Positions 3,107 to 20,984 of a DNA stretch of 64,000 nucleotides are shown here, piece after piece (position 1 is the stretch's first letter; every line of letters starts with the position of its first letter). The position numbers were made by a program, and so were the translations under genes. The DNA comes from Escherichia phage vB_EcoP_DE5, in sequence record MW741821.1. One strand, written 5' to 3'. The notes under the pieces were generated by a model, which had not been told where the DNA came from, searched no databases, and saw nothing but the letters and a program-made list of their open reading frames with translations.

Positions 3107-3361
3107 TTAAACTCCTTTAGGGAATGGGATGAGATTTTCTACTGCAACACGGAAAGATTTTTCTACGTCTTTGTTTTTATAAGAAATGAATTTACCATCA
3201 GCACCACGAAGGATTACATTAGTGCGAGCTGTTTTTGGGTTAATCTCAATCATCCGTTCGATGATCTTGTTTGATTTGTTGTGGTGGTTAGTGAAAGTCC
3301 ACTTAACAATCTTGCCATCTCTGGTTACATCAAAAATATTTACGATTTTTACAATAGACAT
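3107..3361 (-). CDS. hypothetical protein (paralog pair with 2821-3105)
   Basis: 84 aa; same conserved motifs as neighbour. Confidence 0.5.
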   Translation of the reverse strand: MSIVKIVNIFDVTRDGKIVKWTFTNHHNKSNKIIERMIEINPKTARTNVILRGADGKFISYKNKDVEKSFRVAVENLIPFPKGV

Positions 3362-3393
3362 ATTTATTACCTAAGAAGTTTTAATTTGGTTTA

Positions 3394-3428
3394 TATAAAA
3401 GAAAAGGCCACCTGATTAGGCAGCCTTT
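3394..3428 (-). terminator. Rho-independent terminator (minus strand)
   Basis: Minus-strand RNA hairpin GGCUGCC-loop-GGUGGCC followed by U-rich tract; same hairpin type as 28770-28803. Confidence 0.55.
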
Positions 3429-3431
3429 GTT

Positions 3432-3725
3432 CTAGAGACGAAGCCAAGTTTGATAGTCAGCTTCAGTGTAATGATTGTTTCGAGAGTTGTTTTTCATTTC
3501 CTTGAGAGTGGCTCTCAGGTCGATGTTATGCTCTCTCCTTGTTCTATTCGGGTCTGTATCTTCTAATAGATGGGAGTGATCACTACAAGAGTAGTGCTTA
3601 TAGTGGTCCCTATATCCTCTACTTGGAGAATACTTGGTCATTAAAGTTGCAACTCTTTTTACACCCTCTGCTTTACAGAATTTACAATAAGTGTGAATTG
3701 TACATCTTTTTGTTTCTGCTGACAC
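3432..3725 (-). CDS. Cys/His-rich small protein (possible HNH-like nuclease)
   Basis: 97 aa with CKFCK and HYKHYSCSDHSH clusters. Confidence 0.35.
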   Translation of the reverse strand: MSAETKRCTIHTYCKFCKAEGVKRVATLMTKYSPSRGYRDHYKHYSCSDHSHLLEDTDPNRTRREHNIDLRATLKEMKNNSRNNHYTEADYQTWLRL

Positions 3726-3735
3726 TATAACCTCT

Positions 3736-4050
3736 TTATGAGCTTAAAGCTCCTTTGCGTGCTCCAGCTGCTTTTCCAGCTCGATCACCACTTTTGCCGC
3801 CGTTTGAACGGTTTGAGCTGACTGATTCAACACGTAAGTTGCTTGACGCATTAGAGCCTCCAGACTTGACAGCTCGTTTGTGTCCAACATCTTTACCTCT
3901 GACAGCAGCTTTTCCATCGCGCTTTTCAACGATGCGACGTGCACGGTGGCGCTGAGCATCTCCGCTCTTGCTCCCAACGCCTGTCTCACCACGGGCAATT
4001 GCGGTACGTCTTTCTTGTGCATAATCTCTCTTTCCTACATGATCTGCCAT
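3736..4050 (-). CDS. hypothetical basic Gly/Arg/Lys-rich protein
   Basis: 104 aa; strong AAGGAG SD 8 nt upstream of ATG; an alternative overlapping frame 3744-4022 cannot be excluded. Confidence 0.35.
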   Translation of the reverse strand: MADHVGKRDYAQERRTAIARGETGVGSKSGDAQRHRARRIVEKRDGKAAVRGKDVGHKRAVKSGGSNASSNLRVESVSSNRSNGGKSGDRAGKAAGARKGALSS

Positions 4051-4106
4051 TTAAAACTCCTTAATATATCAGTGTACACTAAGGAGTATACATTATAAGT
4101 TACTGT

Positions 4107-4844
4107 TTAAGCTTTCTTTTCCATTGCTTTAACAATCGCCTTACAGAAACCAGAACGAACAATATCATCTGATTCACCATCTACAATCTCAGCAAACTCA
4201 TACAGATCATGTTCATCAATAAAGTTAGTAGCCCAAGTAAGACCACTCTCACGACCACGCATATCATGCTGGTTAGTATCGCCCATGCAGAACAGCTGAG
4301 AGGTTTCTCCCAATCGAGTCATGATCGAGAAGGCTTCATCTTTAGTGGTGTTCTGGAACTCATCAACAATAACAATAGCATCATTGAAAGAACGACCACG
4401 GAGATATTCCAGAGGTACGAACTCAATGTTACTGTTACCGAGCTGGCATTCATAGAACCCCTTACCATATCGCTGAGTAATAACATCAATGATAGGCATC
4501 AGGTAAGGTTCAAACTTCTCGCGCATTCCTCCCGGAAGTAACCCAAGGGAGTTGCCCATGCCAACCGAAGGGCGACTCAGAATGATCTTCTGAATCTTAC
4601 CACTTTTCAGTGCATCAATAACCGTGGAAGTGATTACAAAGGTCTTACCACAGCCCGCAGGAGCGTCTGTGAACACAACTTGTTTAGTCTTAATAGCATT
4701 GAGTAGCTCAGACTGAAACTGGTTCTGAGGGACTACAGGCTTTGCTAAAACCACCTCTTCATACTCTCGCTTACCCTTACGAGTAACAAGAGCTTCCCGA
4801 CGAAGGTCTTTCCGTGATTCTTTCCGTGATTGACGACGACTCAT
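4107..4844 (-). CDS. phoH: PhoH-like ATPase
   Basis: 245 aa; Walker A-like APAGCGKTF, Walker B-like IVDEFQN; typical PhoH length. Confidence 0.85.
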   Translation of the reverse strand: MSRRQSRKESRKDLRREALVTRKGKREYEEVVLAKPVVPQNQFQSELLNAIKTKQVVFTDAPAGCGKTFVITSTVIDALKSGKIQKIILSRPSVGMGNSLGLLPGGMREKFEPYLMPIIDVITQRYGKGFYECQLGNSNIEFVPLEYLRGRSFNDAIVIVDEFQNTTKDEAFSIMTRLGETSQLFCMGDTNQHDMRGRESGLTWATNFIDEHDLYEFAEIVDGESDDIVRSGFCKAIVKAMEKKA

Positions 4845-6992: not shown

Positions 6993-7007
6993 CCGTGAAT
7001 ATCCTTA

Positions 7008-7283
7008 TTACTTATTGCTCAGGGCTGTGTCCAAAAATGCTTTCAGGTTTGCTTCAGTCTGCATACCGGAGAGACTGTAGTGTGCACCACTATTACGGTC
7101 AGGTACAACAAAAGCAGGGATGCTTCGTACACCATACTTAACAGCTTGTTCACGACCATCACCTTCAAGGATGTTAATCTCTTCCACTTCTACATCAAAC
7201 TCCTTAACAACCTTCTCAAAGGTAGGAGCCATTGCTTTACATGGAGCACACTGATCACTATAAAACTTAATTACTTTAGACAT
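7008..7283 (-). CDS. thioredoxin-like protein
   Basis: 91 aa with CAPC active-site-like motif. Confidence 0.7.
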   Translation of the reverse strand: MSKVIKFYSDQCAPCKAMAPTFEKVVKEFDVEVEEINILEGDGREQAVKYGVRSIPAFVVPDRNSGAHYSLSGMQTEANLKAFLDTALSNK

Positions 7284-7291
7284 GTAAATCC

Positions 7292-7471
7292 TTATGCAGT
7301 CAGGAGGTGAAGCAGGAATGGGATAACAACAGCTACGATAACCATGATGGTTGATGCTGTTTGAATCTCACCTTTCTTATCAGGAGTTTCTTCAATAAGC
7401 TTACCAGAAGCCCAATAAATACCACCACCAATAAAGATAGCCCAAATACCCCATACGATTGCTGATAACAT
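7292..7471 (-). CDS. small membrane protein
   Basis: 59 aa hand-translated (MLSAIVWGIWAIFIGGGIYW...), two hydrophobic segments; below track cutoff. Confidence 0.4.
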   Translation of the reverse strand: MLSAIVWGIWAIFIGGGIYWASGKLIEETPDKKGEIQTASTIMVIVAVVIPFLLHLLTA

Positions 7472-7532
7472 ATATCTATATCCTTATAAATAAGTTCGCC
7501 CCACCTCGGGTTAGGAGACAGGGCGGAGGTTT

Positions 7533-8144
7533 TTAGTAAGACACGTCACCACTTGAATGGGACATGTTGCTCTTGACGAAGTAGCAATACTTGCCAAGAC
7601 CTTCATTAATTTCTTGAAGCATACTCTGATCGACAGGGTAGGTGGCTAAATCACCATCAAACTCATCCATCTTCTCAATAATACACATCAAGGTCATGCA
7701 CATATCAGAGAGCATACCGTCCATGTCTAGATCAGCATTACCCTCTGAGAACCAAGCATGAGAGAGGTAGTTAGCTGCTGTAGCATCCACTTTAACACAG
7801 TGGTAACGCATACGTTCAGCAATACGATCTCCTACCTGTCGTGCGTAATCTTCCAGCTCATCAAACATACCATGAACACCCTGAAATCCTGCACCAGAGA
7901 CGTTCCAGTGGTAGTTTTTAGCTTTGATATGCAAGAGTTCCATGTTAGCTTGTAAGCAGCTCAGGATGTGTTCTAGGCTGTTTGCACTAATCATGCCTTG
8001 CATTGTTTCAAGGCGAGAGATTGAAAGCTCAGATCGGTCTAACATACTATAACTGTCACGACCAATCTCAGGTAAATCAAAGACATTCTTATGCATTTGG
8101 GTTTTCTCCATCAAGTTCAACTGAGTTAGCAACATTACGTGCAA
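7533..8144 (-). CDS. Dps/ferritin-like protein
   Basis: KAKNYHWNVSGAGFQGVHGMFDELEDYARQVGDRIAERMR resembles Dps KxxHWNxxGxxF..H...DE...D.IAER; true start may be internal. Confidence 0.55.
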   Translation of the reverse strand: MHVMLLTQLNLMEKTQMHKNVFDLPEIGRDSYSMLDRSELSISRLETMQGMISANSLEHILSCLQANMELLHIKAKNYHWNVSGAGFQGVHGMFDELEDYARQVGDRIAERMRYHCVKVDATAANYLSHAWFSEGNADLDMDGMLSDMCMTLMCIIEKMDEFDGDLATYPVDQSMLQEINEGLGKYCYFVKSNMSHSSGDVSY

Positions 8145-8418
8145 TATTATCCATTACCTGCTGGGTAATTACGATGCAGTTCTGTGGGTCTACTGACTTA
8201 GAACGCCCCATTTCAGGATCATACACCTTAACTCGCTTAGCAGTTGAACCTGTAACCTGAAGAACCTTCAACAGATATCCCTGATTACCAATAGACCAAG
8301 CAACAACATCACGATTCTTGATAAAGCGACCAAGCATATCACGATGATAAAACTGTTGCATCACCTTGGATTTTGTAATCTCTTCAGTGGGCGGGGCCAC
8401 TTTACTCAAATCTAACAT
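8089..8418 (-). CDS. hypothetical protein
   Basis: 109 aa; TAATGTATA-like motif about 40 nt upstream. Confidence 0.45.
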   Translation of the reverse strand: MLDLSKVAPPTEEITKSKVMQQFYHRDMLGRFIKNRDVVAWSIGNQGYLLKVLQVTGSTAKRVKVYDPEMGRSKSVDPQNCIVITQQVMDNIARNVANSVELDGENPNA

Positions 8419-8453
8419 AACTCTCTCCTGTAAAATACAAATTCTTATTGTAC

Positions 8454-8465
8454 TCTATATACATT
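8454..8465 (-). promoter_or_regulatory. putative phage-specific promoter element (AAATGTATATAG)
   Basis: Near-match to the TAATGTATATAGG motif recurring upstream of plus-strand genes. Confidence 0.35.
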
Positions 8466-8490
8466 TGAGAGTTATCATATCTACTACCAA

Positions 8491-8700
8491 TCAGTAGTAA
8501 ATTACTTTAGACATAAAAGAACCAGTGTTAGGGTCTTCATACCAGCGATGTATGTCAGCGCTTTTTACTATTGTGCCCAGAGTCTTCAACTGTTTCTTAG
8601 CAATACGAGCCTCTTTGCGAGTGTCAAACAATTTGATGTTATCTTTTCTCATGTGTTGCTCAAGATCCCAAACAACATGAATAGCCCACATCTTTTTCAT
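8491..8700 (-). CDS. hypothetical protein (paralog triplet member)
   Basis: 69 aa; tandem with two similar-sized ORFs, abutting start/stop, shared C-terminal Y(Y). Confidence 0.5.
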   Translation of the reverse strand: MKKMWAIHVVWDLEQHMRKDNIKLFDTRKEARIAKKQLKTLGTIVKSADIHRWYEDPNTGSFMSKVIYY

Positions 8701-8909
8701 TAGTAATGTACCTTTCCGCTGATATAAACACGACCAGAAGAATACTCTTTGGCCTTATGGATACTGATACTGTTGACCACGTCACCAGTAAGCATAGTCT
8801 TTTTAAAATCTCGAGCTTGTTGGCGAGTGGGTAGTGCAGTCATAGTCATACCGCCTGATGCCCACTTAATCTTTGCTAACCAAATTTTTCTCATAGTGAT
8901 TGGTCTCAT
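8700..8909 (-). CDS. hypothetical protein (paralog triplet member)
   Basis: 69 aa; same pattern. Confidence 0.5.
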   Translation of the reverse strand: MRPITMRKIWLAKIKWASGGMTMTALPTRQQARDFKKTMLTGDVVNSISIHKAKEYSSGRVYISGKVHY

Positions 8910-9106
8910 TAGTAATAAACCTTACTGTTGGCAAGAAAAGCACCTTCGCTATTCACAATAGCTTTCCCCAACGTAACCTTGCTGAGTCTAAAAGTAGACT
9001 TGTATTGGTTTTTGACCCTACGGGCGTGCTCTCGAGTATTAACAAAATCTACAGCTACTAACTCTCCAGTCGTGTTATCATGTACACGAACAATCCACTT
9101 TTTCAT
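8909..9106 (-). CDS. hypothetical protein (paralog triplet member)
   Basis: 65 aa; same pattern. Confidence 0.5.
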   Translation of the reverse strand: MKKWIVRVHDNTTGELVAVDFVNTREHARRVKNQYKSTFRLSKVTLGKAIVNSEGAFLANSKVYY

Positions 9107-19554: not shown

Positions 19555-20168
19555 AACGAATCCACCAACGTAATATTATAATTGCTAAGGTTTTCAGAGA
19601 TGTGATGAAAATGCTCCAGAAGTCGCATCGGTTGCTGACCGTAAGAGTCACGAGGTGCTTCCAGATCTACTTGTCCTACCAGTGCACCTTTATAATGCAC
19701 CTTACCATCCGTAGGGTTGATGTAAATGTAACGAGTAACCAATCCATCAAATTCAGGATTGAACAGACTGTAAACCATTTCACCAGAGATCGAACGACCA
19801 ATCCCAGGAGCGTTTCGAATCTTGTTACCCATCAAACCCTTCGCTCTCTGACGAACAGGGTTGATGTGAGTCCAGCTTACAGTGTTACCGTTATGGAACA
19901 GATAACCAACATCAGGCGATTCAAGAATCAAGGTTGGGTCGAACACTGGAATATTCATCGTAGTGTTTCGAAGATTCCCTTGCTCATTCTTGTACCACTG
20001 CTCTACAACAAAGTACAAAGCCTGTTCTGCTTCGTGAGAGAAGTCATCGCTGCGGAAGTTACCGCTCTGCTCAACACCAATCACAAAACACGGAAGGTTG
20101 ATATTGCCTGCCCGTTTAGCAATCCATGTACCATTATAGTAATGAGAAAAATCAGCTACTAAGCTCAC
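19551..20168 (-). CDS. hypothetical protein
   Basis: 205 aa; operon with amidoligase genes. Confidence 0.5.
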   Translation of the reverse strand: MSLVADFSHYYNGTWIAKRAGNINLPCFVIGVEQSGNFRSDDFSHEAEQALYFVVEQWYKNEQGNLRNTTMNIPVFDPTLILESPDVGYLFHNGNTVSWTHINPVRQRAKGLMGNKIRNAPGIGRSISGEMVYSLFNPEFDGLVTRYIYINPTDGKVHYKGALVGQVDLEAPRDSYGQQPMRLLEHFHHISENLSNYNITLVDSL

Positions 20169-20177
20169 GATAACCTC

Positions 20178-20984
20178 TTATGCTACCTGAAGGAGTTTGA
20201 TCTGCTGGTCAGCTTCTTTAACGTTGTTCCCGTTAATGATTTCATGAAGCTTCTCAATCGGAAGGCGAGAGTGCAATGCCATCAGAGTGGACATATCACA
20301 CTGCTGAACAACCTTGTCAACCTGATCGTAAACAAACTTACGGTTTTCACGATCACTAATCCAGAAGTTAGACAGAGAGCGATATTCAATACCATAGTCT
20401 TTATAACGGATTGCAGATGCTTTACCGTAGAGTTCTTTACGGCGAGTATCTTTGTCCATAATTACTGCTGGGAGAGACAGGAAGTAGTCACACAGCACAC
20501 CAAGCATCATCTGAGTTTGCAGAGTGATATCCAAAGCACCAACTACGCCAAGATGTACGTGACCACCGGCAGTACGAAGTCCCTTATTCTGAGAAGTCGG
20601 GGATGGGTTTTTCTGACCAGTGAAGGCGTTGAAATCAGGAGTGCACCCGAAGATGAACGCTGATTCATTAAAGGTCTTCATCTCTTCTTCAGTGAATATG
20701 TGAGAGCTAACACCTGGAGCTGTTTCCATGTCTAGTTTGTTCAGGACATTGTTAGTGAGATCGATACCACGTTGCATGTTATCGTTAAACGCTTCAAAAC
20801 CGCTCTGTGGGTCGATATCAAACTCAGCCAGTACGTTGTCCTCTTGAAGACGAACATCTTTAGCCAGAGCGATCTTATCGTCCTTAGAGCAGCCTAATAA
20901 ACCGGCTACAGAGGTGATGATACCGTTGCTAGTACGAACGAACATTTCAGGGTCAGAGCCGATGAGGAATTTGCGCTTAGTCAT
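20178..20984 (-). CDS. putative second amidoligase (GCS2-like)
   Basis: 268 aa; IGSDPEMF and GGHVHLG motifs. Confidence 0.4.
   Translation of the reverse strand: MTKRKFLIGSDPEMFVRTSNGIITSVAGLLGCSKDDKIALAKDVRLQEDNVLAEFDIDPQSGFEAFNDNMQRGIDLTNNVLNKLDMETAPGVSSHIFTEEEMKTFNESAFIFGCTPDFNAFTGQKNPSPTSQNKGLRTAGGHVHLGVVGALDITLQTQMMLGVLCDYFLSLPAVIMDKDTRRKELYGKASAIRYKDYGIEYRSLSNFWISDRENRKFVYDQVDKVVQQCDMSTLMALHSRLPIEKLHEIINGNNVKEADQQIKLLQVA

Follow-up and report, generated by a model that had tools for sequence, protein, structure and literature searches.

Gene Limits and Features of the Locus

The window, by which we mean the whole stretch of DNA analyzed here (64,000 nt of Escherichia phage vB_EcoP_DE5, record MW741821.1), carries on its minus strand a gene for a Dps-family mini-ferritin that is directly preceded by a small gp68-like gene and bordered by candidate transcription signals. 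In order of coordinates, the features of the locus are the following:

7497..7525, minus strand: GC-rich, terminator-like hairpin (stem of 11 bp) that lies 8 nt beyond the stop codon of Dps and leads into a weak T-rich tail
7533..8096, minus strand: Dps-family mini-ferritin gene, ortholog of phiEco32 gp67, 187 aa plus stop; from the ORF, the annotated-CDS start, matches to Pfam, PHROG, and PDB, and AlphaFold2 (AF2) and Foldseek analyses
7815..7910, minus strand: ferroxidase-center block, codons 63-94, with H63, W64, H75, and D79 in helix A and the A-B turn and D90 and E94 in helix B
7956..8096, minus strand: N-terminal extension of ~40-47 aa, specific to the Kuravirus-like clade; from alignment, AF2, and charge counts
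8089..8418, minus strand: gp68-like small gene, 109 aa, phrog_10984, with a stop that overlaps the Dps start; predicted SH3-like beta-barrel
8097..8144, minus strand: in-frame 5′ extension of the maximal ORF (TTG start), lying inside the upstream gene
8456..8466, minus strand: AAATGTATATA, a 10/11 match to the phage-sigma (gp36) motif tAATGTATAtA; candidate promoter
8474..8501, minus strand: sigma-70-like promoter TTTACT-16-TATGAT, a candidate from a consensus scan, upstream of the gp68-like/Dps pair

The maximal ORF in the ORF list spans 7533..8144 on the minus strand and encodes 203 aa without interruption when counted from its TTG codon. It carries KNYHWNVSGAGFQGVHGMFDELEDYARQVGDRIAERMR, the Dps motif block that was quoted in the first-pass annotation, which had assigned this ORF to the Dps/ferritin-like proteins. 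The true start of the gene is almost certainly the ATG at 8096 (MHKNVFDL..., 187 aa, 21.2 kDa), which corrects the maximal ORF: a GGAG sequence is present at 8109-8106, nine bases 5′ of this ATG; in the sequence ATGCATAA, this start codon and the stop codon of the preceding gene overlap; and the 564-nt CDS annotated in both phiEco32 (gp67) and ES17 has the same frame and start. The 5′ extension, in turn, is probably not translated. Residue numbers below refer to the 187-aa protein unless stated otherwise. Three plus-strand ORFs of 65, 42, and 85 aa that fall here are antisense to the conserved gene and were rejected as unsupported.

Assignment to the Dps Family

The Pfam Ferritin model PF00210 matches the maximal ORF with an E value of 2.9e-7 (31 bits against a cut-off of 24.5) and spans only residues 71-124 of its 203 aa, and PHROG 3636 ("DNA binding protein") matches with an E value of 3.8e-55. 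In a phmmer search against PDB, ~35 distinct Dps sequences were recovered at E<1e-3 and all significant matches were Dps proteins; the best were M. smegmatis Dps2 and B. subtilis MrgA (E values of ~3e-9 to 5e-9), and the PDB sequence matches also included a 3kwo chain labeled "putative bacterioferritin" (E=7e-4). The HMM search that had been proposed as a check therefore returned the Ferritin/Dps family, and the motif block, the Pfam score above cut-off, and the PDB matches together bear out the original assignment. The NCBIfam Dps/DpsA equivalog models NF006975, NF041388, and NF052461, on the other hand, all scored below their cut-offs (34.7 versus 114, 32.4 versus 170, and 17.6 versus 300 bits, respectively). 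Because these cut-offs are missed and PF00210 covers only part of the protein, we regard the phage protein, as judged from sequence comparison, as a member of the Dps family that is the equivalog of no curated bacterial or archaeal Dps and represents a divergent branch.

An exhaustive profile search against 1.84 billion representative proteins gave 3420 matches at E<1e-3 and only 7 clusters at E<1e-30, and those matches among the 3420 that were sampled carry PF00210. A further protein from this search, P0032 (1156 aa, 20 matched stretches), was rejected; it looks repetitive and gives spurious matches to many unrelated Pfam models. E. coli Dps (1dps, 1f30) belongs to the same family and its ferroxidase residues can be aligned with those of the phage protein, but the two are only ~19% identical and phmmer aligned them over 40 residues with an E value of ~0.1-0.2. 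Because of this low identity and weak score a recent capture of the host gene is ruled out, and the available sequences place the phage protein in a small, divergent, and essentially viral branch of the family.

Predicted Fold and Ferroxidase Center

An AF2 monomer model built on 14 relatives (mean pLDDT 80.6, pTM 0.72) contains helices A (41-65), B (71-98), BC (107-112), C (125-150), and D (154-176), with a pLDDT above 85 in the core. This is the A-B-(BC)-C-D four-helix bundle topology of Dps, including the short helix in the BC loop, and the model has no fifth C-terminal (E) helix of the kind found in 24-mer ferritins. When the model was compared with PDB using Foldseek, the best 50 matches were all Dps proteins (TM to target 0.75-0.92), with neither ferritins nor bacterioferritins among these 50. 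Structure prediction had been put forward as a check on the assignment, which was to be given up if no ferritin-like fold was found; the predicted fold is ferritin-like and specifically that of Dps.

The predicted ferroxidase center is likewise intact. H63, W64, H75, D79, D90, and E94, the residue set that was to be inspected for ferroxidase function, are all present and invariant among 14 relatives down to 48% identity, and a regular-expression search confirmed that the phage protein has the correct Dps spacing H-x12-H-x3-D...D-x3-E. H63, H75, D90, and E94 stay invariant across an alignment of 21 sequences, E. coli Dps among them. The phage residues H63/W64/H75/D79/D90/E94 align with H51/W52/H63/D67/D78/E82 of E. 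coli Dps. Acidic residues of the CD loop and of the start of helix D are also kept (D144, E145, D147, D149, and D156), as expected for an iron-entry pore.

Among structurally characterized proteins, B. anthracis Dlp-2 (1jig), Listeria innocua Dps (6hv1), and B. subtilis MrgA (2chp) have the same bundle and BC helix (rmsd 1.1-2.1 A, TM 0.84-0.89, with Dlp-2 at 1.1 A and 0.89 against the AF2 model in Foldseek) and the same pattern of ferroxidase residues at 20-27% identity. Compared with these three proteins the phage protein adds an N-terminal extension of ~40 aa, is more acidic, and is unusually rich in Met and Cys; it contains 15 Met and 5 Cys and has a conserved DMCMTL stretch in helix C. 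M. smegmatis Dps2 (2z90, 4m35) is the best match in PDB by both sequence and fold (E=3e-9 over residues 66-192, ~23% identity); it is a bacterial nucleoid-associated protein, and its biological context is therefore unlike that of a phage Dps.

Distribution among Phages and Existing Annotation

A megablast search with positions 7000-9000 returned 98 phage records, nearly all of them Escherichia or Shigella Kuravirus, and the best had 97-98% identity at 100% query coverage. The window ORFs that were scanned contained no member of an integrase or ribonucleotide reductase (RNR) family. The close relationship to Kuravirus and the lack of an integrase among these ORFs are consistent with the lytic lifestyle ascribed to the phage in the first-pass annotation. 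The large ORFs of the same arm encode ThyX, thioredoxin, dCTP deaminase, a nucleotidyltransferase, PhoH, and an amidoligase/glutamine amidotransferase.

The Dps protein is 100% identical in ES17, CHD5UKE1, and YW01 and 98.9% identical in phiEco32. The orthologs phiEco32 gp67 and SU10 gp67 (97-99% aa identity) are both 187 aa, are both encoded between gp68 and gp66/thioredoxin, and differ in nothing substantive from the window protein; the model of the SU10 protein is also the top match in BFVD. In a tblastn search of 50,697 phage records with the Dps protein as query, 138 had matches. The close ones (81-100% identity) are Kuravirus-like E. coli and Shigella phages, and the distant ones (26-45%) are prolate podophages that resemble Salmonella 7-11, Proteus Privateer, Cronobacter GAP52, and Aeromonas LAh phages, together with a few Streptomyces and Synechococcus phages. 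The gene is conserved across Gordonclarkvirinae, Grimontviridae, and Lahexavirus, and the authors of the SU10 and Privateer papers reported it as conserved in prolate podophages (PMC4281155, PMC7881722), with the SU10 study finding it in all C3-morphotype phages that were compared (PMC4281155). The view that Dps homologs are uncommon in phage genomes thus holds for phages overall and fails within this clade, where Dps is a core gene.

The distant homologs Privateer QIN94861, 7-11 AEK81988, GAP52_062, and LAh_6 gp082 are 31-45% identical to the window protein and share with it a gp68-like partner and a nucleotide-metabolism neighborhood. The Dps proteins of Grimontviridae and Lahexavirus differ from it in being shorter (146-156 aa), in lacking the Kuravirus N-terminal extension, and in being encoded next to NrdD/NrdG, genes that were not found among the scanned ORFs of the Kuravirus window.

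Assignment of this gene to the Dps family is correct but already known. The phiEco32 ortholog phi32_67 (ABY52868.1) has been recorded in GenBank since 2008 as a "DNA-binding protein" with the note "member of the Dps family", and the assignment was repeated in the papers on SU10 (PMC4281155) and Privateer (PMC7881722); as a discovery it is accordingly of little importance. The authors of the Privateer paper describe the function of Dps as unverified (PMC7881722), and our full-text literature searches for functional work on any phage Dps returned annotation-level mentions only. What is added here is the corrected start, the case against DNA binding, the picture of the operon and its synteny, and the identification of an integrase mis-annotation.

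The gp68-Like Partner and Candidate Transcription Signals

The overlap between the stop codon of the gp68-like gene and the start codon of the Dps gene suggests that Dps is translationally coupled to its upstream neighbor. In Privateer, GAP52, and LAh_6, a homolog of the gp68-like gene immediately precedes Dps, with stop and start codons that overlap or abut, and a homolog is also present in 7-11. An alignment of the gp68-like homologs has 19 invariant columns. The protein matched no Pfam model, and its AF2 model (pLDDT 84.4) forms an SH3-like barrel for which Foldseek gave only weak KOW, Tudor, and PWWP matches, all with E>=0.009. Two proposals concerning this protein were rejected. It has one Cys and no Fe-S motif, which speaks against a role as a Bfd-like ferredoxin, and its partnership with Dps is not strict, as contig L009 lacks Dps and has its gp68-like gene immediately next to NrdD.

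Both candidate promoters lie upstream of the pair and on the same strand. In SU10, the middle genes were described as headed by a sigma-70 promoter that precedes CDS68, and the middle promoters were reported to carry the tAATGTATAtA motif (PMC4281155). Counts of TAATGTAT, AATGTATA, and the 11-mer motif in the window were none of them above those in shuffled sequences, so that support for the promoters comes from where they lie, how they are oriented, and what was reported for SU10. At the other end of the pair, the hairpin at 7497..7525 has a predicted RNA folding energy of -15.5 kcal/mol (z = -2.6) and would act as a terminator. With these limits, the gp68-like/Dps pair would form the first unit of the middle operon and possibly the one most strongly expressed.

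A Proposed Role in Removing Iron and Peroxide

The best explanation for the locus, to which we assign a probability of roughly 0.6, is that it encodes a dodecameric mini-ferritin that removes Fe2+ and H2O2 during phage DNA synthesis. By analogy with cellular Dps, the phage protein would assemble as a hollow dodecamer in which ferroxidase sites at the two-fold interfaces oxidize Fe2+, preferably with H2O2, and the resulting Fe3+ would be stored inside the cage. Both reactants of the Fenton reaction would in this way be removed during dNTP synthesis and DNA replication by the phage. Dps would stand with the gp68-like gene at the start of the middle transcription unit, which is devoted to replication and nucleotide metabolism, and the genes for thioredoxin, ThyX, and dCTP deaminase in its neighborhood agree with such a context.

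Kuraviruses and phages of the phiEco32 type shut off host sigma-70 transcription. Because of this inhibition, OxyR-dependent induction of the cell's own dps would fail after infection, and the phage may bring a replacement. That infection is accompanied by oxidative stress is plausible, since lytic infection of Y. ruckeri by YerA41 induces host dps, catalase, and peroxiredoxin. The locus would then be a tractable case of a virus that supplies its own control of oxidative stress and iron, through a core gene that is well expressed in a group of phages used in therapy work (e.g., ES17 and BASEL Bas87-92).

Charge Distribution and the Question of DNA Binding

A different possibility is that the protein binds or condenses DNA, either coating phage DNA for protection or compacting the host nucleoid during takeover. 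It belongs to a family some members of which bind DNA, its gene sits within the replication module, and both PHROG 3636 and many GenBank records are labeled "DNA binding protein". The known modes of DNA binding by Dps depend on basic tails at the N or C terminus or on a basic surface, and in E. coli Dps binding is mediated by the Lys-rich N-terminal tail (+3, with 5 Lys). The phage tail is not Lys-rich: the N-terminal 40 aa contain K1 R3 D3 E3 and have a net charge of -2, N-terminal tails across the clade range from -2 to +1, and the C-terminal tail is at -1, so that a Lys/Arg-rich terminal tail of the E. coli type is absent from both ends of the protein. The protein as a whole is strongly acidic (pI 4.72, net charge -15 per monomer). 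It resembles in its missing basic tail Dlp-2 and Listeria Dps, neither of which, to our knowledge, binds DNA.

The extension itself is conserved in the Kuravirus-like clade, with the motif S-x-x-R-[LM]-[ED]-x-M in which R28 is invariant and a low-confidence AF2 helix at residues 24-37; the homologs from Grimontviridae and Aeromonas phages lack it and align only from about residue 45. Given how acidic the protein is and that a Lys-rich tail is missing, the widespread label "DNA-binding protein" is doubtful and probably wrong for the Kuravirus-like clade; it was seemingly inherited from the family name and not from any test. With the basic determinants missing across the clade we consider a DNA-binding or DNA-condensing role unlikely. 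For the same reasons, any protection of DNA would most likely come from the chemistry of iron and peroxide that we propose above and not from coating of the DNA.

Synteny with Ribonucleotide Reductase Genes in Related Phages

The gene order in relatives points to a link with dNTP synthesis. GAP52 and Privateer share the order dCTP deaminase - thioredoxin - gp68-like - Dps - NrdD (anaerobic RNR), a 172-kb metagenomic contig has the order DCD - gp68-like - Dps - ... - NrdD, and in LAh_6, NrdD and NrdG are found just upstream and an NrdR-like gene just downstream. This conserved arrangement would be accounted for if Dps were an iron buffer or donor for iron-dependent dNTP synthesis, for example in loading the NrdG activase with Fe-S or host NrdB at its di-iron site, and not a general antioxidant. 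Kuraviruses, however, keep Dps with no RNR gene in the scanned ORFs, and for that reason it is the gene order of other genera that ties Dps to dNTP synthesis; on contig L009, where the gp68-like gene is next to NrdD, Dps is missing and hence dispensable for that module. We know of no Dps that acts as an iron donor for RNR cofactors, and we judge such a role improbable for the Kuravirus protein.

The breadth of conservation, together with the recovery of Dps from CsCl-banded Privateer virions and the fusion of Dps-like domains to proteins of uncultured phages labeled "prohead protease", could also be read as a sign that the Dps cage is more than a cytoplasmic antioxidant and is a lineage-defining accessory of prolate (C3) podophages, with a physical tie to the particle or to packaging of the genome. 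In a variant of this proposal, Dps and its coupled SH3-like partner would form a new pair for handling iron in the service of the anaerobic RNR module, which is sensitive to oxygen. We hold this to be quite improbable.

Expression and the Question of a Virion Component

Two proteomic studies have detected phage Dps proteins. Mass spectrometry of a PEG-concentrated lysate identified the SU10 ortholog by 6 peptides (35.8% coverage) (PMC4281155). That sample was PEG-precipitated only; its authors warn of the possible presence of early and middle proteins, and it did contain DNA polymerase and thioredoxin (PMC4281155). Privateer Dps was found by mass spectrometry in CsCl-purified particles as one of only about ten phage proteins (PMC7881722). 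A purely cytoplasmic role does not predict the presence of Dps in CsCl-purified Privateer virions.

These data raise the possibility that Dps is associated with the virion in prolate podophages, where it would be packaged into the capsid or attached to it and would either be delivered with the packed genome or protect it. The Privateer protein (~41% identical) provides the most direct argument, to which can be added the presence of the gene in all C3-morphotype phages compared and, in BFVD, Dps-like domains in proteins of uncultured phages that are labeled "prohead protease", which, if real, would place Dps within procapsids. Against this, the gene belongs to the middle/replication module and does not lie amid structural genes, the SU10 sample contained nonstructural proteins as described above, and the cryo-EM study of SU10 names gp20-24 as the head-internal ejection proteins and never mentions Dps. 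A dodecamer of ~9 nm would moreover be unable to exit through the portal, and iron-loaded cages, being dense, might end up in the same CsCl band as the phage. A role in the virion therefore seems very improbable to us, and removal of iron and peroxide in the infected cell remains the reading that we prefer.

Mis-annotation of the Gene as an Integrase

Many Kuravirus records in GenBank label the Dps gene as an integrase; among the 60 records listed this holds for at least 12, including IME267 and the 100% identical ES17 protein (QPL11110.1). Nothing other than this product label speaks for an integrase, a reading with practically no chance of being right: the protein has no integrase or recombinase domain, Ferritin is the sole Pfam family that it matches up to E=1, its predicted fold is the Dps four-helix bundle, and at 187 aa it is below the size of a tyrosine or serine recombinase. 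The label is certainly wrong, and it could cause strictly virulent therapeutic phages to be falsely flagged as temperate.

The Integrase Label and Sequence Features of Dps

The gene encoding the mini-ferritin Dps carries the product name "integrase" in at least 12 of the 60 Kuravirus GenBank records listed. The product so named in phage ES17 (QPL11110.1, positions 1501–2064 of the ES17 record, L002) and that of phage IME267 (P0004) are encoded by the same gene as the following gene of the window:

7533–8096, minus strand: Dps

QPL11110.1 is 100% identical to the window Dps protein, in which a Pfam search found no recombinase domain. The label could cause virulent therapeutic phages to be flagged, wrongly, as temperate.

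Helix C of the protein contains a conserved Met/Cys-rich stretch, GMLxDMCMTL, in which M128, L129, D131, M132, and M134 are invariant and C133 is nearly so:

7692–7718, minus strand: Met/Cys-rich stretch, residues 127–135 of 187 aa

Over its full length, the window Dps contains 15 Met and 5 Cys, whereas E. coli Dps has four Met and no Cys.

The gp68-Like Partner

The small protein encoded upstream of Dps (phrog_10984) is predicted to form an SH3-like barrel and is kept in at least five phage genera, with positions HRD, W41, and Q87/N91 invariant:

8089–8418, minus strand: gp68-like gene

Homologs lie at 3139–3423, 1897–2163, 3187–3456, and 3109–3462 of the related phage loci L003, L004, L005, and L006, respectively, and our analysis suggests that the gp68-like gene is usually coupled translationally to Dps. 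On contig L009 Dps is absent, and the gp68-like gene (4001–4297) directly overlaps NrdD.

Neighboring Genes and an Insertion in Other Kuraviruses

Several other genes of the window were also noted:

7292–7471, minus strand: predicted membrane protein, 59 aa, hydrophobic (WGIWAIFIGGGIYW), phrog_9296
8491–8700, 8700–8909, and 8909–9106, minus strand: tandem paralogs, all phrog_4939
9650–11077, minus strand: large ORF, "nucleotidyltransferase," phrog_12715 (E = 1e-259)
14704–20984, minus strand: cluster of RimK-like ("ribosomal protein S6 glutaminyl transferase"), GFAT-like aminotransferase, amidoligase, and COOH-NH2 ligase genes

The phrog_9296 gene lies between the terminator-like hairpin of Dps, which it immediately follows, and thioredoxin. 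The three paralogs (65–69 aa each), flanked by dCTP deaminase on one side and the gp68/Dps promoter on the other, all have C-terminal ends of the form VxYY or VHY. The large ORF, the counterpart of phiEco32 gp73, which is annotated as hypothetical, has only a weak, subthreshold Pfam match to the PolyA_pol head domain (20 bits vs. 23). The ligase cluster is in the early/middle arm.

In a megablast search with window positions 7000–9000 (2,001 bp), the match in MN03, EcM-vB1, phiEc_1, and ev_rybdy3/8, which are otherwise 97–98% identical to the window, spans ∼2,377 bp split into two pieces, implying that an insertion of ∼375 bp, missing from the window, lies somewhere in this stretch of these Kuraviruses. 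In ES17, homing endonuclease genes are inserted near thioredoxin/ThyX.

Dps-Like Domains in Other Proteins

A search of BFVD, a database of viral protein models, with the window Dps matched Dps-like domains within much longer viral proteins (A0A6J7XDU5, A0A6J7WPK9, A0A6J7WIS1, and several "Dps" proteins of 290–680 aa from uncultured Caudovirales). Some of the long proteins bear the label "prohead protease"; if real, these fusions would mean that Dps domains are targeted to the procapsid in some phages, which would recall the ferritin-like cargo of encapsulins. The Dps homolog P0033 (210 aa), from a profile search of 1.84 billion representative proteins, ends in a C-terminal tail of 58 poly-Asp/Glu residues with a net charge of −38, the opposite of a DNA-binding tail.
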